This document shows, in pieces, positions 18,330-26,262 of a stretch of DNA of 42,021 bases. The position numbers and the translations under genes are program-made. The notes below the pieces were generated by a model. It had not been told where the DNA came from, did no database searches, and saw only the letters and a list, made by a program, of their open reading frames with translations. This DNA comes from a virus (lineage: Duplodnaviria > Heunggongvirae > Uroviricota > Caudoviricetes). Within the stretch, counting starts at the first letter, position 1. The number at the start of each line of letters is the position of its first letter. The DNA lies in the IMG/VR virus record IMGVR_UViG_2703718855_000003, positions 1 to 42,021 of that record; one strand, written 5' to 3'.

Positions 18330-19658
18330 TTACAACGCCGCGTAATTACCGTGCGCGATAATCAATCCATAGGTATAACAATCGAAAAGGTCATCAGCAC
18401 GTTTATGTGCGTCTTTGTCTGCCAGGTGGAACCCGGCGATTTGTTTAATGAGGTGGTTTGCGGTGGTACGTTTGAATGAAACGGTCTTGTCGTAAGCCTC
18501 CCGGGCGATTTTGCACATCCCCTGATAGTGGTAGCTGGATGCCATCACCGCCCGTTCGTCTTTACCTTTGCTGGTTAGTGCCGATTTAATCGGCGTCATA
18601 TCCCAGCCTTCGGTTTCCGCCTTCTGGTTGAGGATTGCCCCCATCGCGGCGTCTTCCATAAAAATTCCCTGGCAGCCCAAACGCGGACGGCATAATTTCG
18701 CGAGGCGCTCGAGGTTTTCATAAACGCCGGGGATATATTCAGGAAGCAATGACGCTTTAATTTGCGTCACATCCCAGTCAATAATCGTCAGTTTTGGCTC
18801 GTCCGAATACGTTGACTCATAAGCGAAATACACCACGCCAGTACCATCATTTTCGGTCCCGCCTTTCAGCGCCGTATCCATCACTGCGAAAATCATGTCG
18901 CAGTACGGCGGCATCTCAATTGGCTGACCGTCCACCAGCAGCTTATCGACATCGAGTAACGCGTCTTTGGACCAGTCCACGAACTCGGCAAGATATTCCT
19001 GCTGCCAAACGCGCGGATCGGATTTCTTCTCCGTTTCCTCCAGTTCTTCTTTCGGAATGTACGGATTCGATGAAGTTGGCGCATGGTGCATGACAAATCC
19101 CAGGGATTCATCGTGGCATATCGCGTAGAAAAAATTGCTCTCGTCGATACCGTTTGGTGTGGAAAATACCCACGCACAGCCACGGTAATCAACAAGCGTC
19201 GGGCGTATAGCGCGGGGCCAGATTTCCTCGAGCATTTCCGGCGATTTAGTGAATGCGGCCTCATCAATCAGCACAGCGTGATATTTACGCCCACGCCCGG
19301 CCAGTTTGTTATTGTCCGTTACCCAAAAGTCGATGCGCCCCCCATTACGGAGAATAATGCGCTTTTCATTTTTTGACTGGCTGAGGATCAGCGGTTGCAG
19401 AACGGCGCTAATTTCATCCCAGATTTCCTGGTACTGTCGGTATTGTGCGGTAAAAATCCCCACCCTACCCGCGATAAGCTGCCCGGTGGTAGGAACGGCA
19501 AATTTCCGCGTCGCGAAACTGGTAGCGATGTTCACCAGCATCACCGTTTTACCCCAGCGACGACCACAGCATACCGCGTGGAAGCGTTCCTCTATTGCCG
19601 CCGTCCATGCAGCTATTTGCCCCTCATGAGGTTTTGGGAGGTAGATTTCAATCGACAT
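18330..19658 (-). CDS. Terminase large subunit
   Basis: 442 aa; Walker A-like CCGRRWGKT, Walker B-like HAVLIDEAAF, then FSTPNG and acidic residues in the C-terminal half consistent with the nuclease domain. Confidence 0.8.
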   Translation of the reverse strand: MSIEIYLPKPHEGQIAAWTAAIEERFHAVCCGRRWGKTVMLVNIATSFATRKFAVPTTGQLIAGRVGIFTAQYRQYQEIWDEISAVLQPLILSQSKNEKRIILRNGGRIDFWVTDNNKLAGRGRKYHAVLIDEAAFTKSPEMLEEIWPRAIRPTLVDYRGCAWVFSTPNGIDESNFFYAICHDESLGFVMHHAPTSSNPYIPKEELEETEKKSDPRVWQQEYLAEFVDWSKDALLDVDKLLVDGQPIEMPPYCDMIFAVMDTALKGGTENDGTGVVYFAYESTYSDEPKLTIIDWDVTQIKASLLPEYIPGVYENLERLAKLCRPRLGCQGIFMEDAAMGAILNQKAETEGWDMTPIKSALTSKGKDERAVMASSYHYQGMCKIAREAYDKTVSFKRTTANHLIKQIAGFHLADKDAHKRADDLFDCYTYGLIIAHGNYAAL

Positions 19659-20739
19659 TATCCACTCCCGGCATCGGCAGAGAGTTGTGGATAATTATTT
19701 CGTTATTCTCACCACCCACACCTTTTTTGAGGTTTTCAATCTCAGTGCGCAGCTTTTCGTTGCGAAGCCTCAGTCCTTCAAGCTCCAGATCATTGCGACT
19801 GTCAGTTGCACCACCAGCAGAACTTCCTTTCGTCGCCGTTATCAGCTTGATAAGTTCGCGCCGGGCGGCAGCCTTATCCTCCAGCAGGATCTCAACGCCG
19901 AATTTTCCGAGCTTTGCCCCTGCATATAATTGCCGCGCATCCCCATCAAGCAGAGCGGTATCAGCCATATAAAGCTGTCCCATTCCCTCACCGCAGCACT
20001 TCGGGCAGTCCAGATTGGGTATGGCGTTATCAACAAAGCCAAGGCCTCCATATTCCGGCTCGGGTTTGCCATCTCTGGAGGCCTGTGCCGCTGCCTTATC
20101 GAATTCTGCAATATCACGCCACTGGTAGAGGTGATTCTCGCCCCAGCAATAACGGCAGTTAACACGGCGAAATTGTGCCAACTGATTGGGGTCGGCCTGG
20201 ACAATGGCCATCAACTGACTCACCAGTAAATCCAGGTCTGCGGTATAGCGTTTCTGATACTGATTGCGGAAGTAGCTGATAGCACGATAAACCCTGGCAT
20301 TTCTAAGCATACGGCTGGCGTTGCTGTTAGCTGTCGCACCTTGCCCCTCATAACCAGCCAGTCGGTATGCCTCTGTCGGCTTTTTCCCCTGAGCAACAAG
20401 CATCGCAAACTTAGCCTGCTGGTCAGAAATGCCGAATTCATCGGGGCAGAACGAAAATTCCTCCGCGTCGCCCTCATTCAGGCACGCATCGGATACTGGC
20501 TTTTTTTTCTGAGATTTTCCGTTCCGCTTTTGCGCAGTCTGCGCAGATTTTTTCTGCGCACTTTGTTGCGCAGTTTTGCGCATTTCTGTCTGCGCATTTT
20601 TCGGAGGTTTTTTGATGTAACGACGGGCTGTTGCGTAATTCAGTCCCCTTGCCTCACACCATGCCACCGGGGATACACCGGAGCGGGTGTATTCAGCAAT
20701 ATATTCCTGCTGCAACGCCCCCCAGTCCGGTCTGCTCAT
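19648..20739 (-). CDS. Terminase small subunit-like DNA-binding protein
   Basis: 363 aa; N-terminal helix-turn-helix-like region, long Lys/Gln/Ala-rich linker, Cys-rich C-terminal region (CRYCWGE...CPKCCGEG); overlaps the large terminase start. Confidence 0.5.
   Translation of the reverse strand: MSRPDWGALQQEYIAEYTRSGVSPVAWCEARGLNYATARRYIKKPPKNAQTEMRKTAQQSAQKKSAQTAQKRNGKSQKKKPVSDACLNEGDAEEFSFCPDEFGISDQQAKFAMLVAQGKKPTEAYRLAGYEGQGATANSNASRMLRNARVYRAISYFRNQYQKRYTADLDLLVSQLMAIVQADPNQLAQFRRVNCRYCWGENHLYQWRDIAEFDKAAAQASRDGKPEPEYGGLGFVDNAIPNLDCPKCCGEGMGQLYMADTALLDGDARQLYAGAKLGKFGVEILLEDKAAARRELIKLITATKGSSAGGATDSRNDLELEGLRLRNEKLRTEIENLKKGVGGENNEIIIHNSLPMPGVDNVD
20531..20596. repeat. Array of six TGCGCA hexamers (candidate terminase recognition / pac-type site) inside the small-terminase gene
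   Basis: TGCGCA at 20531, 20540, 20555, 20567, 20577, 20591, each flanked by T-runs. Confidence 0.5.
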
Positions 20740-20742
20740 TAG

Positions 20743-20994
20743 TTAGTCCTGATTTTTATCCACCCTGAGTAGTTCACGCAGGGCAAAGGCATCCCCTTTT
20801 CTGGCAAGCTTAAACAATGCCGCCCGTAGTTCGGCTTCACCTTTCGCTCTGCCCTTACGGATGGATGCGTAAAAATCTGTCATTGCTTCCCGATTTTCTT
20901 TCAGTCGGTTCAGATCAACATCCAGAACGTCAGCGATTTGTTGTGCAGTCATCCGGCACGCTGCCAGAGACTCTACTTTCGAATACGGAATCAT
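20743..20994 (-). CDS. Small helix-turn-helix protein upstream of terminase
   Basis: 83 aa; ATG at 20994 preceded by GGGGGTGA; overlaps the 3' end of the upstream gene by 65 nt. Confidence 0.4.
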   Translation of the reverse strand: MIPYSKVESLAACRMTAQQIADVLDVDLNRLKENREAMTDFYASIRKGRAKGEAELRAALFKLARKGDAFALRELLRVDKNQD

Positions 20995-21862
20995 TTGTCA
21001 CCCCCATTGATATGCAGGGTGTCTTCTTCCTGTATTTTTCGTGAAGGATTTTTACTGCAGCGTTGTTCCAGGTGACCTGATGGTGAATGCGTTTATGGCT
21101 GGCACCCATCAGTGAGATTTTTACGCACGACGGCGCATACATGACGGAGTAAAAACTTTTAACGTAGGTTCCGGAGTCCAGATACAGCTCGGTCATTCCG
21201 CCGCTGTTTTTCTGCGTCTGTTTCTGCCCTAACTGGACAGCACCGATCGTCATAAACAATTCACCACAGCGACCAAGATTCGTATACGTATTCACATCCT
21301 CGTTAATGCGCCCCATGAATGAGAACGGTCGATCAACGGAACAGATAAAACTGTTCATTGCCTTGCGTTTCACCCACGAAGCATGGCCGCCATTGTCACC
21401 AAGAAAATCTCCGCCCTGCGACATAGCGATGGAAAGCGCAGGTATTGATTCGTAGTACGCCAGCATTTCAGAAAGGATCGCATCCAGTTTTCTTATCGGG
21501 AAATAGGCCTGGTCATAGTTGCGATCCACCCGAAACTGGAACTCGTGATAATCATCATCGAGCTGAATGAAGTATTTACACCCGACCAGTTTTGCCAGGT
21601 CGAAACAGGCATTACGGGCGTAAAAAATTGATCGGCGGTCACCGAAATTATCGGCTTCGTCAAAACGACTGGCGATATCGGCTTTGGAAAACACCAGCAC
21701 CTGTTCACTAAATTCAGCTATGTAGTGATGCCGTGTATTATCTTCATCATCAACAACGATAAAAATTTTCCCGGTATAGCCAGCACGACGCAACGTCCGG
21801 TAAGTCAGAACTTTGTCCGGTCGCCCGTGAGTCAGAATAAAGGCGCAAAAATCATCACGCAT
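20930..21862 (-). CDS. GT-A-fold glycosyltransferase-like protein (function unknown; candidate modification enzyme)
   Basis: Track ORF 20930..21883; the ATG at 21862 has a GGAGGAGGAGG Shine-Dalgarno and overlaps the ParB-like stop (ATGCGTGA). N-terminus FILTHGRPDKV...KIFIVVDDEDNT and later QLDDDY resemble the GT-A/GT2 pattern. No transmembrane segment. Confidence 0.5.
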   Translation of the reverse strand: MRDDFCAFILTHGRPDKVLTYRTLRRAGYTGKIFIVVDDEDNTRHHYIAEFSEQVLVFSKADIASRFDEADNFGDRRSIFYARNACFDLAKLVGCKYFIQLDDDYHEFQFRVDRNYDQAYFPIRKLDAILSEMLAYYESIPALSIAMSQGGDFLGDNGGHASWVKRKAMNSFICSVDRPFSFMGRINEDVNTYTNLGRCGELFMTIGAVQLGQKQTQKNSGGMTELYLDSGTYVKSFYSVMYAPSCVKISLMGASHKRIHHQVTWNNAAVKILHEKYRKKTPCISMGVTNDSVFESRVSGSVPDDCTTNR

Positions 21863-22646
21863 ATTCCTCCTCCTCCCCGCCATGCATGATCTCCACCATA
21901 CGCTGCGTCATCCGGACAAATCCATTTTCAATAGCCTGCTGATAATCAATGATCACCAGCGCCGATTCCTCGAAAAAGCACTGAATTTCAGCGGGGGCGT
22001 GAGCGTAATAGTCCGCAATTCTGCTGAAATTAAACACCGTATGACGTTCTGCCGCACACAGGAGGAATTTCTCAATATCAGGATCAAGGGACGCCGAACG
22101 TATCCGGCTGATCAACTCCTGAGTTTTCGTATCGTCGTACAGTTCACTGATATCTGGTTTATCGCCCGACGGCTCATAAACAGGCGTATCAATTTTCGTC
22201 GTGTACGGTTCCTCCTCATTTCCTGTACCGGGCAAAACATCCGTCAACAGTTCATCAATTTCTGTCGGGCTGAATCCTGTCAGGGAGATATCAAAATCAG
22301 CATTGATTAGGTCCGACAGCTCCATCCGTAACAGATCTTCATCCCAGCCAGCATTCATCGGCAGGCGATTATCTGCCAGGCGGTACGCCTTTTTCTGATC
22401 ATCCGTCAGACCAGACAGAACAATAACCGGAACCGAATCCATTTTGAGCGCCTCAGCCGCCATAACGCGACCGTGACCAGCAATAATTTCGCCCTTTTCA
22501 TCAATCAGCACTGGATTAGTCCAGCCGAATTGCTTAATGCTTTCTACCAGTTGTGCCACCTGCTCAGGGCTGTGTGTCCTGGCATTGTGTGCATACGGAG
22601 ACAGTTCTTGTAACGGGCGATAGACGATCTTCAATTTCTCGCTCAT
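21855..22646 (-). CDS. ParB-like nuclease domain protein
   Basis: 263 aa; ...NPVLIDEKGEIIAGHGRVMAAEALKMDSVPVIV... matches the ParB/Srx N-terminal domain core; GAGG ribosome-binding site. Confidence 0.7.
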   Translation of the reverse strand: MSEKLKIVYRPLQELSPYAHNARTHSPEQVAQLVESIKQFGWTNPVLIDEKGEIIAGHGRVMAAEALKMDSVPVIVLSGLTDDQKKAYRLADNRLPMNAGWDEDLLRMELSDLINADFDISLTGFSPTEIDELLTDVLPGTGNEEEPYTTKIDTPVYEPSGDKPDISELYDDTKTQELISRIRSASLDPDIEKFLLCAAERHTVFNFSRIADYYAHAPAEIQCFFEESALVIIDYQQAIENGFVRMTQRMVEIMHGGEEEEYA

Positions 22647-22769
22647 ACAGCCTCGCTTTATGAATAAAAAAGCCCGCTATCGGCCAGTACGCTGGGTGCG
22701 CGGCGGGTGCCGATGACGAGCTTTGGCATTATCGCAACCCCTCACCATGAAGGGCTGCTGTAATGCCTG

Positions 22770-22877
22770 TTACTCACGAATCAAACGAGCATGCTGACCA
22801 CTCATTTCAATGCGTAAGTATTGTGGCTTGCCGTCAATCAACGCGGTGATTAACTTGTCACCTGTAGGTTTCCACAT
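22770..22877 (-). CDS. Small ORF (35 aa) with strong ribosome-binding site
   Basis: AGGAGA 5-6 nt upstream of ATG at 22877; encodes MWKPTGDKLITALIDGKPQYLRIEMSGQHARLIRE; below the ORF-track size cutoff. Confidence 0.3.
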   Translation of the reverse strand: MWKPTGDKLITALIDGKPQYLRIEMSGQHARLIRE

Positions 22878-23050
22878 AATTTTCTCCTGTTTTAATGCCC
22901 CTTGCCGCCAGGCAGTTGATCAAAGTTCATCTTGATTCGGCAAGATTTAGAATGAATAAGATAAAATTGGCACACGCAGCAGAATTTCATGCTTTCCGGA
23001 CGCTGGCGCACCCTTCATTTTTCAGCAAAATATTCTGCTATTACAGGCGA

Positions 23051-23233
23051 TCAGTTCTGCATACACTGCCGAACACCATCAATAAGCTGACAGACCTGAG
23101 ACGCGGTATCGAAAAGCTGGCGCGCCTTATCCAGGCTAACGCATCCCACCAATAAAAAAGGCACCAGTATCGCTACCAGTGCCCATTTCGCCGCTGTTCG
23201 CGGCGTTCTGTGTGTCCAGTGTTTTCTGCTCAT
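23051..23233 (-). CDS. Lipoprotein, possible outer-membrane spanin component
   Basis: ATG at 23233 with AGGTG upstream; 60 aa MSRKHWTHRTPRTAAKWALVAILVPFLLVGCVSL... with basic N-region, hydrophobic core and LVGC lipobox; directly follows the endolysin. Confidence 0.45.
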   Translation of the reverse strand: MSRKHWTHRTPRTAAKWALVAILVPFLLVGCVSLDKARQLFDTASQVCQLIDGVRQCMQN

Positions 23234-23247
23234 AACACACCTGGTTA

Positions 23248-23625
23248 TCAGCGTTTCAACTGAAAGTGAGGTCCGTCTTTCAGTGTTTTCCAGTCCCCGC
23301 CCCATTCGATGGCAGTTCCCAGCTCTGCGGCAGCCTGCTTAAATGCCTGCGCGATTTTCTCGTACAGAGGCCAGTCCCATGACACCTGGCTACCAATGTA
23401 GGCAACAACATCCACCGCATCACCTGTCAGGTGGCGGCTGTTCATGGTCTGGCTCTTGCCTTCTGCAACCAGCTGTTTCTGGCGATACTTACTGCGCAGG
23501 CCTTCCGTAATACCGAAATCAACCTCCGTCAGCTCCAGCGCACGGCGAACGACAGCAACCAGCTGTGGTTTGACGCCCTCCAGATTTTTTTCACTGCGAC
23601 GGCTGAATCTGAATTTACCCGACAT
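23248..23625 (-). CDS. Endolysin, peptidase M15-type (L-alanyl-D-glutamate peptidase family)
   Basis: ATG at 23625 with GAGGTGA upstream; pattern FRFSRRSEKNLEGVKPQLVAVVRRALEL...SRHLTGDAVD...WGGDW matches T5-type endolysins as I recall them. Confidence 0.8.
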   Translation of the reverse strand: MSGKFRFSRRSEKNLEGVKPQLVAVVRRALELTEVDFGITEGLRSKYRQKQLVAEGKSQTMNSRHLTGDAVDVVAYIGSQVSWDWPLYEKIAQAFKQAAAELGTAIEWGGDWKTLKDGPHFQLKR

Positions 23626-24728: not shown

Positions 24729-24803
<75 letters not shown>

Positions 24804-25090
24804 ATACTGTGCTGGCCCCCGGAATAACACGAATTACCAAGAGAGCCCGCACTGGTCTTTCCGGTGGCAAACAGCACCCCTGCTAACATAAAAGATAAAC
24901 ACCTTCCAGACGCAAAAATACTAACAACTGTTTTTCAGATATCCAAAATATATTTGGTTTTTATTTTTGAAAATATGTATACATATGTATCATAAATATA
25001 CAAGCCATATCATAACCGAATTAAAAATCTTTAGTTATCTCTTTTGCCGTCTGATCACCACCCACCGGCAGCTGAGAATTCCGGCACACA

Positions 25091-25153
25091 ATGAAAAAGG
25101 CCCGCCAGGGCGAGCCATAAAAACTGAATAAAAAAACCGCCCGGGGCGGCGGC
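25091..25153 (-). repeat. Copy 2 of the 65-bp direct repeat / terminator (downstream of the degenerate tRNA-like sequence)
   Basis: ATGAAAAAGGCCCGCCAGGGCGAGCCATAAAAACTGAATAAAAAAACCGCCCGGGGCGGCGG; minus-sense hairpin followed by a T-run. Confidence 0.6.
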
Positions 25154-25519
25154 TAAAACGATAAAAGGACACAATATTATAATGATTATTGGGTTTGGGG
25201 CATCGGGTGCCTCCCGAAGTATTCCACTTTACGTGGATACTGTGGTTTCCCGCTAAACCGACTCTATAAACCACCCTCGCACTGAGGAACGCCCCAATTC
25301 ATGTTTTCCGACACAGAGATGGCGCATCACTGGTTACTCCACGCTAAATCCTGCTTCCTTTCGTGGGCAATGCGCCATTTCTGTGTCATAAAAAATACAG
25401 CACTGAGTCTGTAACCGATCTCCATTACAGAATGAGGGACGATAAAGGTATTAAAGAGATCTGTTCCTCACGAAAACCGCCAGTGCTGTAAAAACTTGTC
25501 CAAAAAACAATGAAGTTGC

Positions 25520-25590
25520 GGAGAACAGGAATCGAACCGGCATTACCAACCTAAGGCTGATGTAATAACCACTATACGATACCTGCATAT
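25520..25590 (-). pseudogene. Degenerate tRNA-like sequence (decayed copy sharing the D-arm and T-loop of the tRNA-Gly scaffold)
   Basis: Reverse complement GCAGGTATCGTATAGTGGTTATTACATCAGCCTTAGGTTGGTAATGCCGGTTCGATTCCTG... shares the D-arm and T-loop with the tRNA-Gly at 24729-24803, but acceptor and anticodon stems do not pair. Confidence 0.4.
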
Positions 25591-26107
25591 AGAGCAGGCC
25601 TCCGTAACCACAATAATGACACTGATACCGATAACAGCCCTTCATTATGATTAAACGGATGCCAGCAATGACCCGCAAGACAGCGGGTAACACCCCTGTG
25701 AACAGAAACTTGCTGCCTTTCGGGTCGAGAGTAATATTACCGATAATTTATATGACATCAAAAACTAATTAGTTTTCATATTTAAACATATGTATAAATA
25801 TGTATCAGACGCATACAATTTATGTTATTTCATCCAGACTTCTGATTTCTCACAGGAAATTGCGAAAAAAAACAACATAAAAATGAACAAATTGGGAGTA
25901 CGCTAACTCCGTTGTCGCAATAAATCACAGTAAGCTCTTCAGAAATAACAGTTCACAAGACTTACATCAACAGTAGTTTTTGTAATGATTAATGTTAACT
26001 GTAGCGTTGAAAAGAAAAGTTTTGACGAAATATGGTGAACTAACAGAGCCTAACGAATAGCCCTATTACGCCGAGCTAATAGCGCTGCCAGCTAAACTTG
26101 CATGGAA

Positions 26108-26184
26108 TGGTCCGCCACCGAGGACTCGAACCTCGCACAATCAACTTAGAAGGTTGATGCTCTATCCCGATGAGCTAGTGGCGG
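26108..26184 (-). tRNA. tRNA-Arg (anticodon UCU)
   Basis: 77-nt cloverleaf: acceptor CCGCCAC/GTGGCGG, D-arm GCTC-ATCGGGATA-GAGC, anticodon arm TCAAC-CTTCTAA-GTTGA, T-arm CGAGG-TTCGAGT-CCTCG, encoded CCA. Confidence 0.85.
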
Positions 26185-26186
26185 AA

Positions 26187-26262
26187 TGGTGGCCCTTGCT
26201 GGATTTGAACCAGCGACCTGGCGATTATGAGTCGCTCGCTCTCACCACTGAGCTAAAGGGCC
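26187..26262 (-). tRNA. tRNA with CAU anticodon (tRNA-Ile2/ileX-like; Met not excluded)
   Basis: 76-nt cloverleaf GGCCCTT...AAGGGCC-A-CCA, anticodon loop CTCATAA; closely resembles E. coli ileX as recalled; 2 nt upstream of the tRNA-Arg. Confidence 0.85.

Follow-up and report, generated by a model that had tools for sequence, protein, structure and literature searches.

To our knowledge, no more than a handful of phages have had their packaging sites located by experiment, and prediction of such sites from sequence is usually not possible. In phage P1, pac is a 161-bp region inside pacA that carries seven TGATCA/G repeats with Dam sites (PMC10028697; also PMC11260489); synonymous disruption of these hexamers lowered the phage titre about 9-fold, and the hexamers are targets of methylation (PMC10028697). 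For pac sites of the P22/Sf6 type, recoding of wobble positions is an established test (PMC7672466, PMC11260489). In the SF6/SPP1 system, the isolated DNA-binding domain has a weak affinity for pac DNA and does not prefer the box repeats (PMC4737164). Here, we analyzed a stretch of 42,021 nucleotides from a member of the Caudoviricetes (IMG/VR record IMGVR_UViG_2703718855_000003, positions 1 to 42,021), hereafter called the window, which is a Rac-family prophage of Escherichia coli located at ttcA. Six copies of the palindrome TGCGCA are clustered inside its small-terminase gene, terS, and an earlier note on this DNA had put the cluster forward as a candidate recognition site for the terminase. 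Our analysis indicates that the cluster is probably the array by which TerS recognizes a packaging site, and we propose that it represents a widespread kind of site, related to P1 pac, that had not been described before.

Results

Six TGCGCA hexamers in the linker-coding part of terS

The terS gene (19648-20739, minus strand) encodes a protein of 363 amino acids, with a likely helix-turn-helix (HTH) at its N-terminus, a linker and a Terminase_2-type body carrying a CxxC...CxxC motif. The product was assigned as a small terminase from its match to PHROG 51 (E = 3e-71), and its residues 122-310 belong to the Pfam family Terminase_2 (PF03592, E = 9e-9, above the curated cut-off). Comparison with the PDB gave a weak match to the Pam5 small terminase.

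The array of palindromic hexamers extends from 20531 to 20596 and is assigned to neither strand. Its six copies start at 20531, 20540, 20555, 20567, 20577 and 20591, exactly where the earlier note had placed them. The note's description of the copies as evenly spaced holds only roughly, since the start-to-start distances of 9, 15, 12, 10 and 14 bp are irregular; they show no helical phasing. Similarly, the T-rich tract said to follow each hexamer is present on the plus strand after five of the six, and corresponds to Lys/A-rich codons on the coding strand. The hexamers occupy codons 48-70 of terS and thus lie, as had been noted, in the stretch coding for the basic Lys/Gln/Ala-rich linker (approximately residues 44-100; 20440..20610, minus strand), a segment modeled with low confidence. 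Read on the coding strand, the array gives K N A Q T E M R K T A Q Q S A Q K K S A Q T A Q K R. In five copies the reading is xxT-GCG-CAr, which encodes X-Ala-Gln, while the sixth (20577..20582) is off-frame and is read as aTG-CGC-Aaa, that is Met-Arg-Lys. The entire 42-kb window contains only 13 TGCGCA, against 16.5 expected from shuffled sequences, so that six copies within 66 bp are far beyond chance: in 200,000 trials of random placement, no more than four of 13 sites came to lie within 66 bp, and the Poisson estimate for such a cluster is about 6.5e-11 window-wide.

The linker-coding DNA also contains runs of A6 to A10 (window ~20500-20610). Many public 'terminase' proteins of 66-90 amino acids (P0022-P0048, P0115, P0116) are products of terS frameshifted in or beside the linker, in which the hexamers are then translated in a different frame, as in KLRKMRRKKCAKLRKK. 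The homopolymers could be hot spots for the inactivation of terS; they could also be assembly errors.

Selection on the DNA word

The earlier note had allowed that a repeat in the protein might account for part of the pattern, and a repeat conserved as peptide with different codons in relatives was therefore looked for. The opposite was found, the DNA word being kept while reading frames and amino acids differ. When the peptide of residues 44-80 was held fixed and synonymous codons were drawn according to the usage of neighbouring phage genes, the recoded sequences contained 0.81 hexamers on average, and six or more were reached once in 200,000 draws (P(>=6) = 5e-6). The TerS of Klebsiella phage 5 LV-2017, which has only about 35% protein identity to that of the window, is encoded with six TGCGCA at the same place, distributed over all three frames (T-A-Q, L-R-T, K-C-A). 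Across the family of related genes described below, the hexamers fall into the three frames 509, 128 and 26 times. Ala-Gln is spelled T|GCG|CA in 506 of 555 cases in the linker versus 87 of 313 further downstream, a count made with no phylogenetic correction. Furthermore, 34 distinct sequences of the E. coli type differ at 6 of the 36 hexamer positions versus 18 of the 30 spacer positions within the array (Fisher p = 3e-4), and in E. coli W the off-frame copy uses the codon TTG, which replaces Met by Leu, yet TGCGCA is retained. Mixed frames, codon bias and the difference in variation between hexamers and spacers together demonstrate, at the level of sequence comparison, that the hexamers are selected as DNA and are not a by-product of the protein repeat.

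A predicted HTH domain precedes the array

Codons 1-43 of terS (20611..20739, minus strand) encode a three-helix, HTH-like domain, which is the proposed reader of the hexamers. The AlphaFold2 model places helices at residues 6-20, 24-31 and 35-41 (pLDDT 79-87), after which the low-confidence linker begins. The third, putative recognition helix runs from Y35 to Y41 ('YATARRY'; 20617..20637, minus strand), with the codon of Arg39 at 20623-20625. No family in Pfam or NCBIfam matched the domain above threshold; below threshold, the NCBIfam search returned the HTH of IS66 TnpA. We regard the domain as a likely HTH.

The domain and the array occur together

Using an alignment of the 48 N-terminal residues alone, we gathered 160 loci (80 from IMG/VR and 80 from species-representative genomes), which were dereplicated to 140 distinct ones. 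At least three hexamers were present in the 210 nt following codon 40 in 137 of these 140. The three loci devoid of an array are dead genes, two of them truncated soon after the domain and one with a stop codon inside it. Hence every intact gene of this set, all of which start with the 43-residue domain, carries 3-10 hexamers directly after it, even where the remainder of the terminase is unrelated. The family extends over Enterobacterales, Pasteurella (Pasteurellaceae), Aeromonas and Vibrio, and the 240-nt module made of domain and array is found in 883 of 5,426 complete E. coli genomes.

The association does not depend on the body of the protein. By tblastn, the terminases of Klebsiella RothC, Pasteurella Pmp11 and Aeromonas phiARM81mr have only residues 1-43/45 in common with the TerS of the window, and that of Providencia PSTCR3 residues 1-160; each of the four has an array at the same place, the arrays of Pmp11 and phiARM81mr being split 3+5 or 1+6. 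The bodies that follow the linker fall into three major unrelated classes and some singletons, the class of the window being the one with Terminase_2 and CxxC...CxxC, and the array-linked domain also stands on bodies that lack Terminase_2. Since unrelated bodies follow a common domain and array, these two evidently form a module, which has become attached to various terminases, at least three unrelated TerS bodies among them.

The converse search, in which viral contigs were scanned blindly for TGCGCA in groups of three close copies, led back to the same domain, which was encoded within 500 nt of 59 of the 81 clusters among the matches listed. The domain-less clusters among these matches were mostly perfect tandem repeats or three-copy matches in GC-rich DNA. 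One exception (L172) has six irregular copies in an open reading frame (ORF) that begins with a more diverged version of the domain.

Several observations at individual loci are worth recording. Irregular arrays containing TGCGCA also occur with no PacA-like domain nearby: one (L200, 10434-10530), possibly iteron-like, falls within an ORF for which a winged-helix-like protein is predicted as well, and others lie upstream of two genes in an operator-like position (L171, 4593 and 5463). They are other uses of TGCGCA in viral contigs. Klebsiella-type terS genes have two or three extra TGCGCA about 150-190 nt past the main array, in a stretch encoding N-V-A-Q-A-I-A-Q-Q (gene nt 347, 359 and 385 in L001; 347 and 359 in L005); these could be the second flank of a P1-like site, or a coincidence. 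Finally, the gene annotated 'gpOterS' in Rac-SA53 (L002, 2412-3440) is a fusion gene whose deletion junction lies inside the hexamer array, and three of the copies left in it are mutated (TTCGCA, TGCGCT, TGCCCA), which is consistent with decay after the death of the gene.

Probable relationship to the N-terminus of P1 PacA

The profile of the family domain aligned with residues 3-41 of PacA over 39 gapless columns (hhalign probability 93.1%, E = 3e-7). Pairwise comparison of the window domain with PacA by blastp gave E = 0.17 over 20 residues, and the PacA N-terminus itself has sub-threshold matches to HTH_23, HTH_28 and HTH_Tnp_1. The two N-terminal domains are probably homologous, on the strength of the profile alignment. 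The layout of the DNA sites is also alike. We located eight copies of TGATCA/G between nt 193 and 379 of P1 pacA, at nt 193, 200, 212 and 227 and at nt 323, 335, 346 and 374, in mixed frames; they lie on either side of the annotated cuts (about nt 275-284 of pacA).

Residue 39 and the type of motif

The motif is not the same in all members of the family. Arg39 is found with TGCGCA at 123 distinct loci (R-type) and Lys39 with TGCGAA or its complement TTCGCA at 13 (K-type), with no discordant case; His39 occurs at a single locus, with TGCGCA. Position 39 is the only position of the domain that is perfectly associated with the type of motif. The rule extends to the deep lineages, namely Pmp11 (Lys) and those of Aeromonas and Vibrio (Arg). 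Pmp11 has eight TGCGAA and no TTCGCA, in two frames (Cys-Glu and Ala-Asn). The K-type motif is non-palindromic and was found in both orientations.

K-type arrays (for example L007, L104, L112, L125 and L142) often include the 12-bp palindrome TGCGAATTCGCA, which consists of two opposed copies at a spacing of 6 and hints at binding by pairs of domains; unlike these, Pmp11 has all eight copies in one orientation. Treating pairs of R-type and K-type sisters as independent switches was considered and rejected, as the K-type loci differ from their closest R-type relatives in the body as well.

Prophage context

The large-terminase gene (18330-19658, minus strand; 442 amino acids) encodes the nuclease/ATPase partner which, in the proposed reading, would cut near the array. 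No relative of solved structure and no characterised close relative of TerL was found; its only matches, to T5-like and SSU5 terminases, are distant and N-terminal. That the Rac-family prophage packages by a headful mechanism is an assumption. Relative to the Rac-like prophage of E. coli W (NC_017664, 1515917-1527491), the window carries a deletion of about 3.98 kb at ~17128 (compare L292, 430..4404), which takes the 3' part of a gene of portal-like type ('Acb1 family'), a gene with DUF2213 and the greater part of a putative capsid gene. With these head genes lost, the window prophage cannot package anything itself; terS, terL and the hexamer array are intact in it.

Directly upstream of terS, an 83-amino-acid ORF (20743-20994, minus strand) aligns with the central portion of PHROG 309 'terminase small subunit' (E = 2e-22) but has no counterpart in Pfam or NCBIfam. 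Its conservation extends to Rac-like relatives (SPF_0923, E. coli W), and its product could be an accessory packaging protein. Also upstream of terS is a gene for a TET-associated glycosyltransferase (TAGT) family protein (20930-21883, minus strand; PF20691, E = 1e-33; PHROG 'beta-glucosyl-HMC-alpha-glucosyltransferase'), overlapped by the gene of a ParB_N-domain protein (21855-22646, minus strand). As a pair, the two may serve in DNA modification or against restriction. Inspection of the ORFs and of the PGAP annotation for window ~19500-23500, and for the VG48B2 locus, which is identical, revealed no gene for TET/JBP or a hydroxymethylase, and the pair is missing in most other members of the TerS family.

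The prophage further contains three tRNA genes (24731-26262, minus strand), namely Gly(tcc), Arg(tct) and a tRNA with a CAT anticodon (Met according to ARAGORN, Ile according to PGAP), and, further along, the Rac-family toxin genes hokD and ralR. A gene annotated 'type I restriction endonuclease' (L291, 6642-7802, equivalent to window ~5641-6801, minus strand) lies amid baseplate and tail genes and is apparently an inserted moron.

Discussion

A probable recognition array for the small terminase

The suggestion of the earlier note that the hexamers form a terminase recognition site gains strong comparative support from the selection on the DNA word, from the constant HTH-like domain at the N-terminus and from the probable homology to PacA, with its pac site of the same layout. 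The following mechanism would account for these observations. The six hexamers would constitute the recognition part of the packaging site, written into the linker-coding stretch of terS itself. Small terminases as a class form ring-like oligomers, and TerS would do the same, so presenting several tethered HTH domains, each of which could engage a single hexamer, where the C:G pair at position 5 is probably read by Arg39 in the third helix. By analogy with PacA and PacB of P1, the resulting nucleoprotein complex would recruit the large terminase to cut nearby and to start packaging. The reader helix and its sites lie no more than about 100 bp apart and are for that reason inherited as a unit.

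A broader proposal is that these ~100 bp, composed of the PacA-like recognition helix and the array, act as a portable cassette for packaging specificity, in which Arg39 or Lys39 sets position 5 (C or A), which has been shuffled onto at least three unrelated bodies and of which P1 would be a Dam-regulated, bipartite member. We hold this wider view tentatively, at slightly below even chances.

Several points weigh against the interpretation of the array as a packaging site recognized by TerS. It follows from the result obtained with the SF6/SPP1 domain that a repeat within pac need not be a binding site. The literature searched contained no paper linking TGCGCA with a phage terminase, the paper on the Yersinia phage reports no packaging data, and pac cannot be told from cos by TerL since its matches are only distant. 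Foldseek found no significant neighbour of the N-terminal domain in the PDB (best E = 1.3), the top-ranking ones being mostly HTH DNA-binding domains (DeoR, TraR, IstA, Rex, TrpR). The hexamers are spaced by 7-16 bp across the family, without helical phasing. In a plain HMM search PacA ranks first among 7,422 decoy ORFs, but with E = 0.45, and its homology is supported by a comparison of 39 profile columns in which public PacA N-termini, being nearly invariant, provide no diverse alignment. The site also departs from that of P1: terS holds no second cluster, whether exact or with one mismatch, so that the array is a single contiguous cluster, and there is neither an IHF-like site (20300-20800) nor a GATC (20450-20650). 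As for residue 39, its codon sits only about 12-15 nt from the first hexamer, and codons 37-39 themselves spell TGCGAA in 8 of the 13 K-type loci. Moreover, K-type domains are up to 100% identical in amino acids and 97% in nucleotides to particular R-type domains over codons 1-36 and differ downstream, a pattern that suggests recombination at a point just before helix 3 more than independent mutation. In view of these three points the covariation is no more than suggestive of a specificity switch and could reflect hitch-hiking.

Alternative explanations

The alternative that survives best is that the HTH binds the hexamers for a purpose other than packaging, for example with TerS repressing its own gene from an internal operator, or with the array acting as a loading site that has a different part in late gene expression or replication. 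Linkage and covariation show that the domain and the array belong together and say nothing of the role of the complex, and the domain resembles HTHs of transposases or regulators. This alternative is nevertheless improbable, as with every type of body the domain forms the N-terminus of a small terminase, operators are rarely arrays of 5-10 sites within a coding region, and the probable homologue PacA uses equivalent hexamers for pac cleavage (PMC10028697).

The hexamers might instead act as RNA or single-stranded DNA structures, with UGCGCA hairpins in the terS mRNA tuning translation or the TerS:TerL ratio. The array of the window does fold strongly (-37.7 kcal/mol, z = -6.3 versus shuffles), and R-type arrays have a median z of -3.15, but such folding is automatic because the hexamers are self-complementary. 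The non-palindromic K-type arrays do not conserve it (z = +1.4 for Pmp11 and -0.4 for Yersinia), and it is on this ground that the explanation was rejected. Copy number and spacing vary freely, which leaves no conserved pairing scheme, and neither the link with residue 39 nor the parallel with P1 would be explained. We give an RNA role a very small probability.

Slighter still is the chance that another factor targets the hexamers, be it a host DNA-binding protein, a ParB-like protein, the product of the 83-amino-acid ORF, or restriction-modification and methylation, TGCGCA containing GCGC. The ParB_N protein, the TAGT glycosyltransferase and the small terminase-like ORF are indeed encoded directly upstream in the window, and the P1 hexamers are methylated (PMC10028697). 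Array-bearing relatives, however, have lysis genes upstream of terS and none of these three neighbours, in four bacterial orders the motif changes along with a residue that the phage encodes, the K-type motif is non-palindromic and occurs in both orientations, and clustering of restriction sites in a phage would be subject to negative selection.

Least probable of all, and rejected, is that the pattern merely results from the repeated (T/S)-A-Q-K peptide or from neutral slippage and duplication with no function of the DNA: five of the six hexamers do encode X-Ala-Gln in a low-complexity linker, but two or three frames with differing peptides are used (M-R-K, L-R-T, K-C-A, C-E, A-N), the codons are strongly biased towards the hexamer, the hexamers persist while the spacers diverge, the irregular spacing does not fit tandem duplication, and arrays decay in dead genes.

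Implications

If the array is indeed recognized by TerS, a simple rule appears to mark the recognition site of a terminase, a PacA-like N-terminal domain followed by an array of TGCGCA or TGCGAA. The module to which this rule applies occurs in many other Gammaproteobacteria besides E. coli. Should the wider cassette view hold, the packaging sites of thousands of prophages could be read directly from sequence. The rule would predict the start of prophage-driven lateral transduction of host genes and, after experiments, its direction. Under the cassette view, packaging specificity could be re-programmed by swapping one residue and the hexamers together. A recognition switch of one residue and one base in a terminase would become directly testable. 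Wobble recoding would permit the construction of packageable plasmids or of non-packageable helper phages, as done for P1 and P22. The finding would also tie the long-isolated paradigm of P1 pac to ordinary lambdoid prophages.

Comparison with known packaging systems

The array resembles the P22/Sf6-type sites in that recognition would take place within the coding sequence of the small terminase, where protein and site travel together because the site is inside the gene. P22 pac is, however, a single asymmetric sequence of 22 bp, whereas the window has an array of palindromic hexamers, variable in number and spacing, and no similarity was detectable between its TerS and those of the P22/Sf6 type.

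G1P of SPP1/SF6 belongs to the same Pfam family, Terminase_2, as the body of the window TerS, and its pac overlaps the start of terS and has repeats and A-rich, probably bent DNA. The TerS of the window differs in an extra N-terminal domain, absent from G1P and tied to a sharply defined hexamer. Recognition of bent DNA with no discrete motif, as in SPP1/SF6, does not describe the present family, in which a conserved hexamer tracks a separate N-terminal domain.

Like cosB of phage lambda, whose sites R1-R3 are bound by the N-terminal winged HTH of gpNu1, the array consists of several short repeated sites, which an HTH at the N-terminus of the small terminase would use to place the large subunit. 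CosB lies outside and upstream of the Nu1 gene, beside the cos nicking site, requires IHF and serves a cohesive-end system, whereas the window has its sites within coding sequence; the two systems showed no sequence relationship.

The closest parallel is P1. Both systems have short palindromic TG..CA hexamers, seven or eight in P1, within the small-terminase gene, just downstream of the part coding for the HTH and in mixed frames. The third helix is nearly the same ('NTARRYL' in PacA, 'ATARRYI' in the family), T1, G2 and A6 are common to TGATCA, TGCGCA and TGCGAA, and P1 shares with the R-type an Arg as residue 39 and a C as the fifth base of the hexamer. There are also differences. P1 pac is bipartite, with four plus three to four hexamers around a core of about 90 bp that contains the IHF site and the cut, and the Dam GATC in each hexamer controls cleavage; the hexamer of the window has CG in place of AT as its central dinucleotide and no GATC. 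Neither the body of the window TerS, with its zinc-ribbon-like pair of CxxC motifs, nor its TerL resembles PacA or PacB, and the element that carries them is a Rac-type prophage of the lambdoid kind instead of a P1-like plasmid prophage. The array and its domain are thus best read as a P1-like variant that lacks Dam sites and is not bipartite, in which the hexamer and the terminase partners are others than in P1 and a specificity switch of one residue is apparent.

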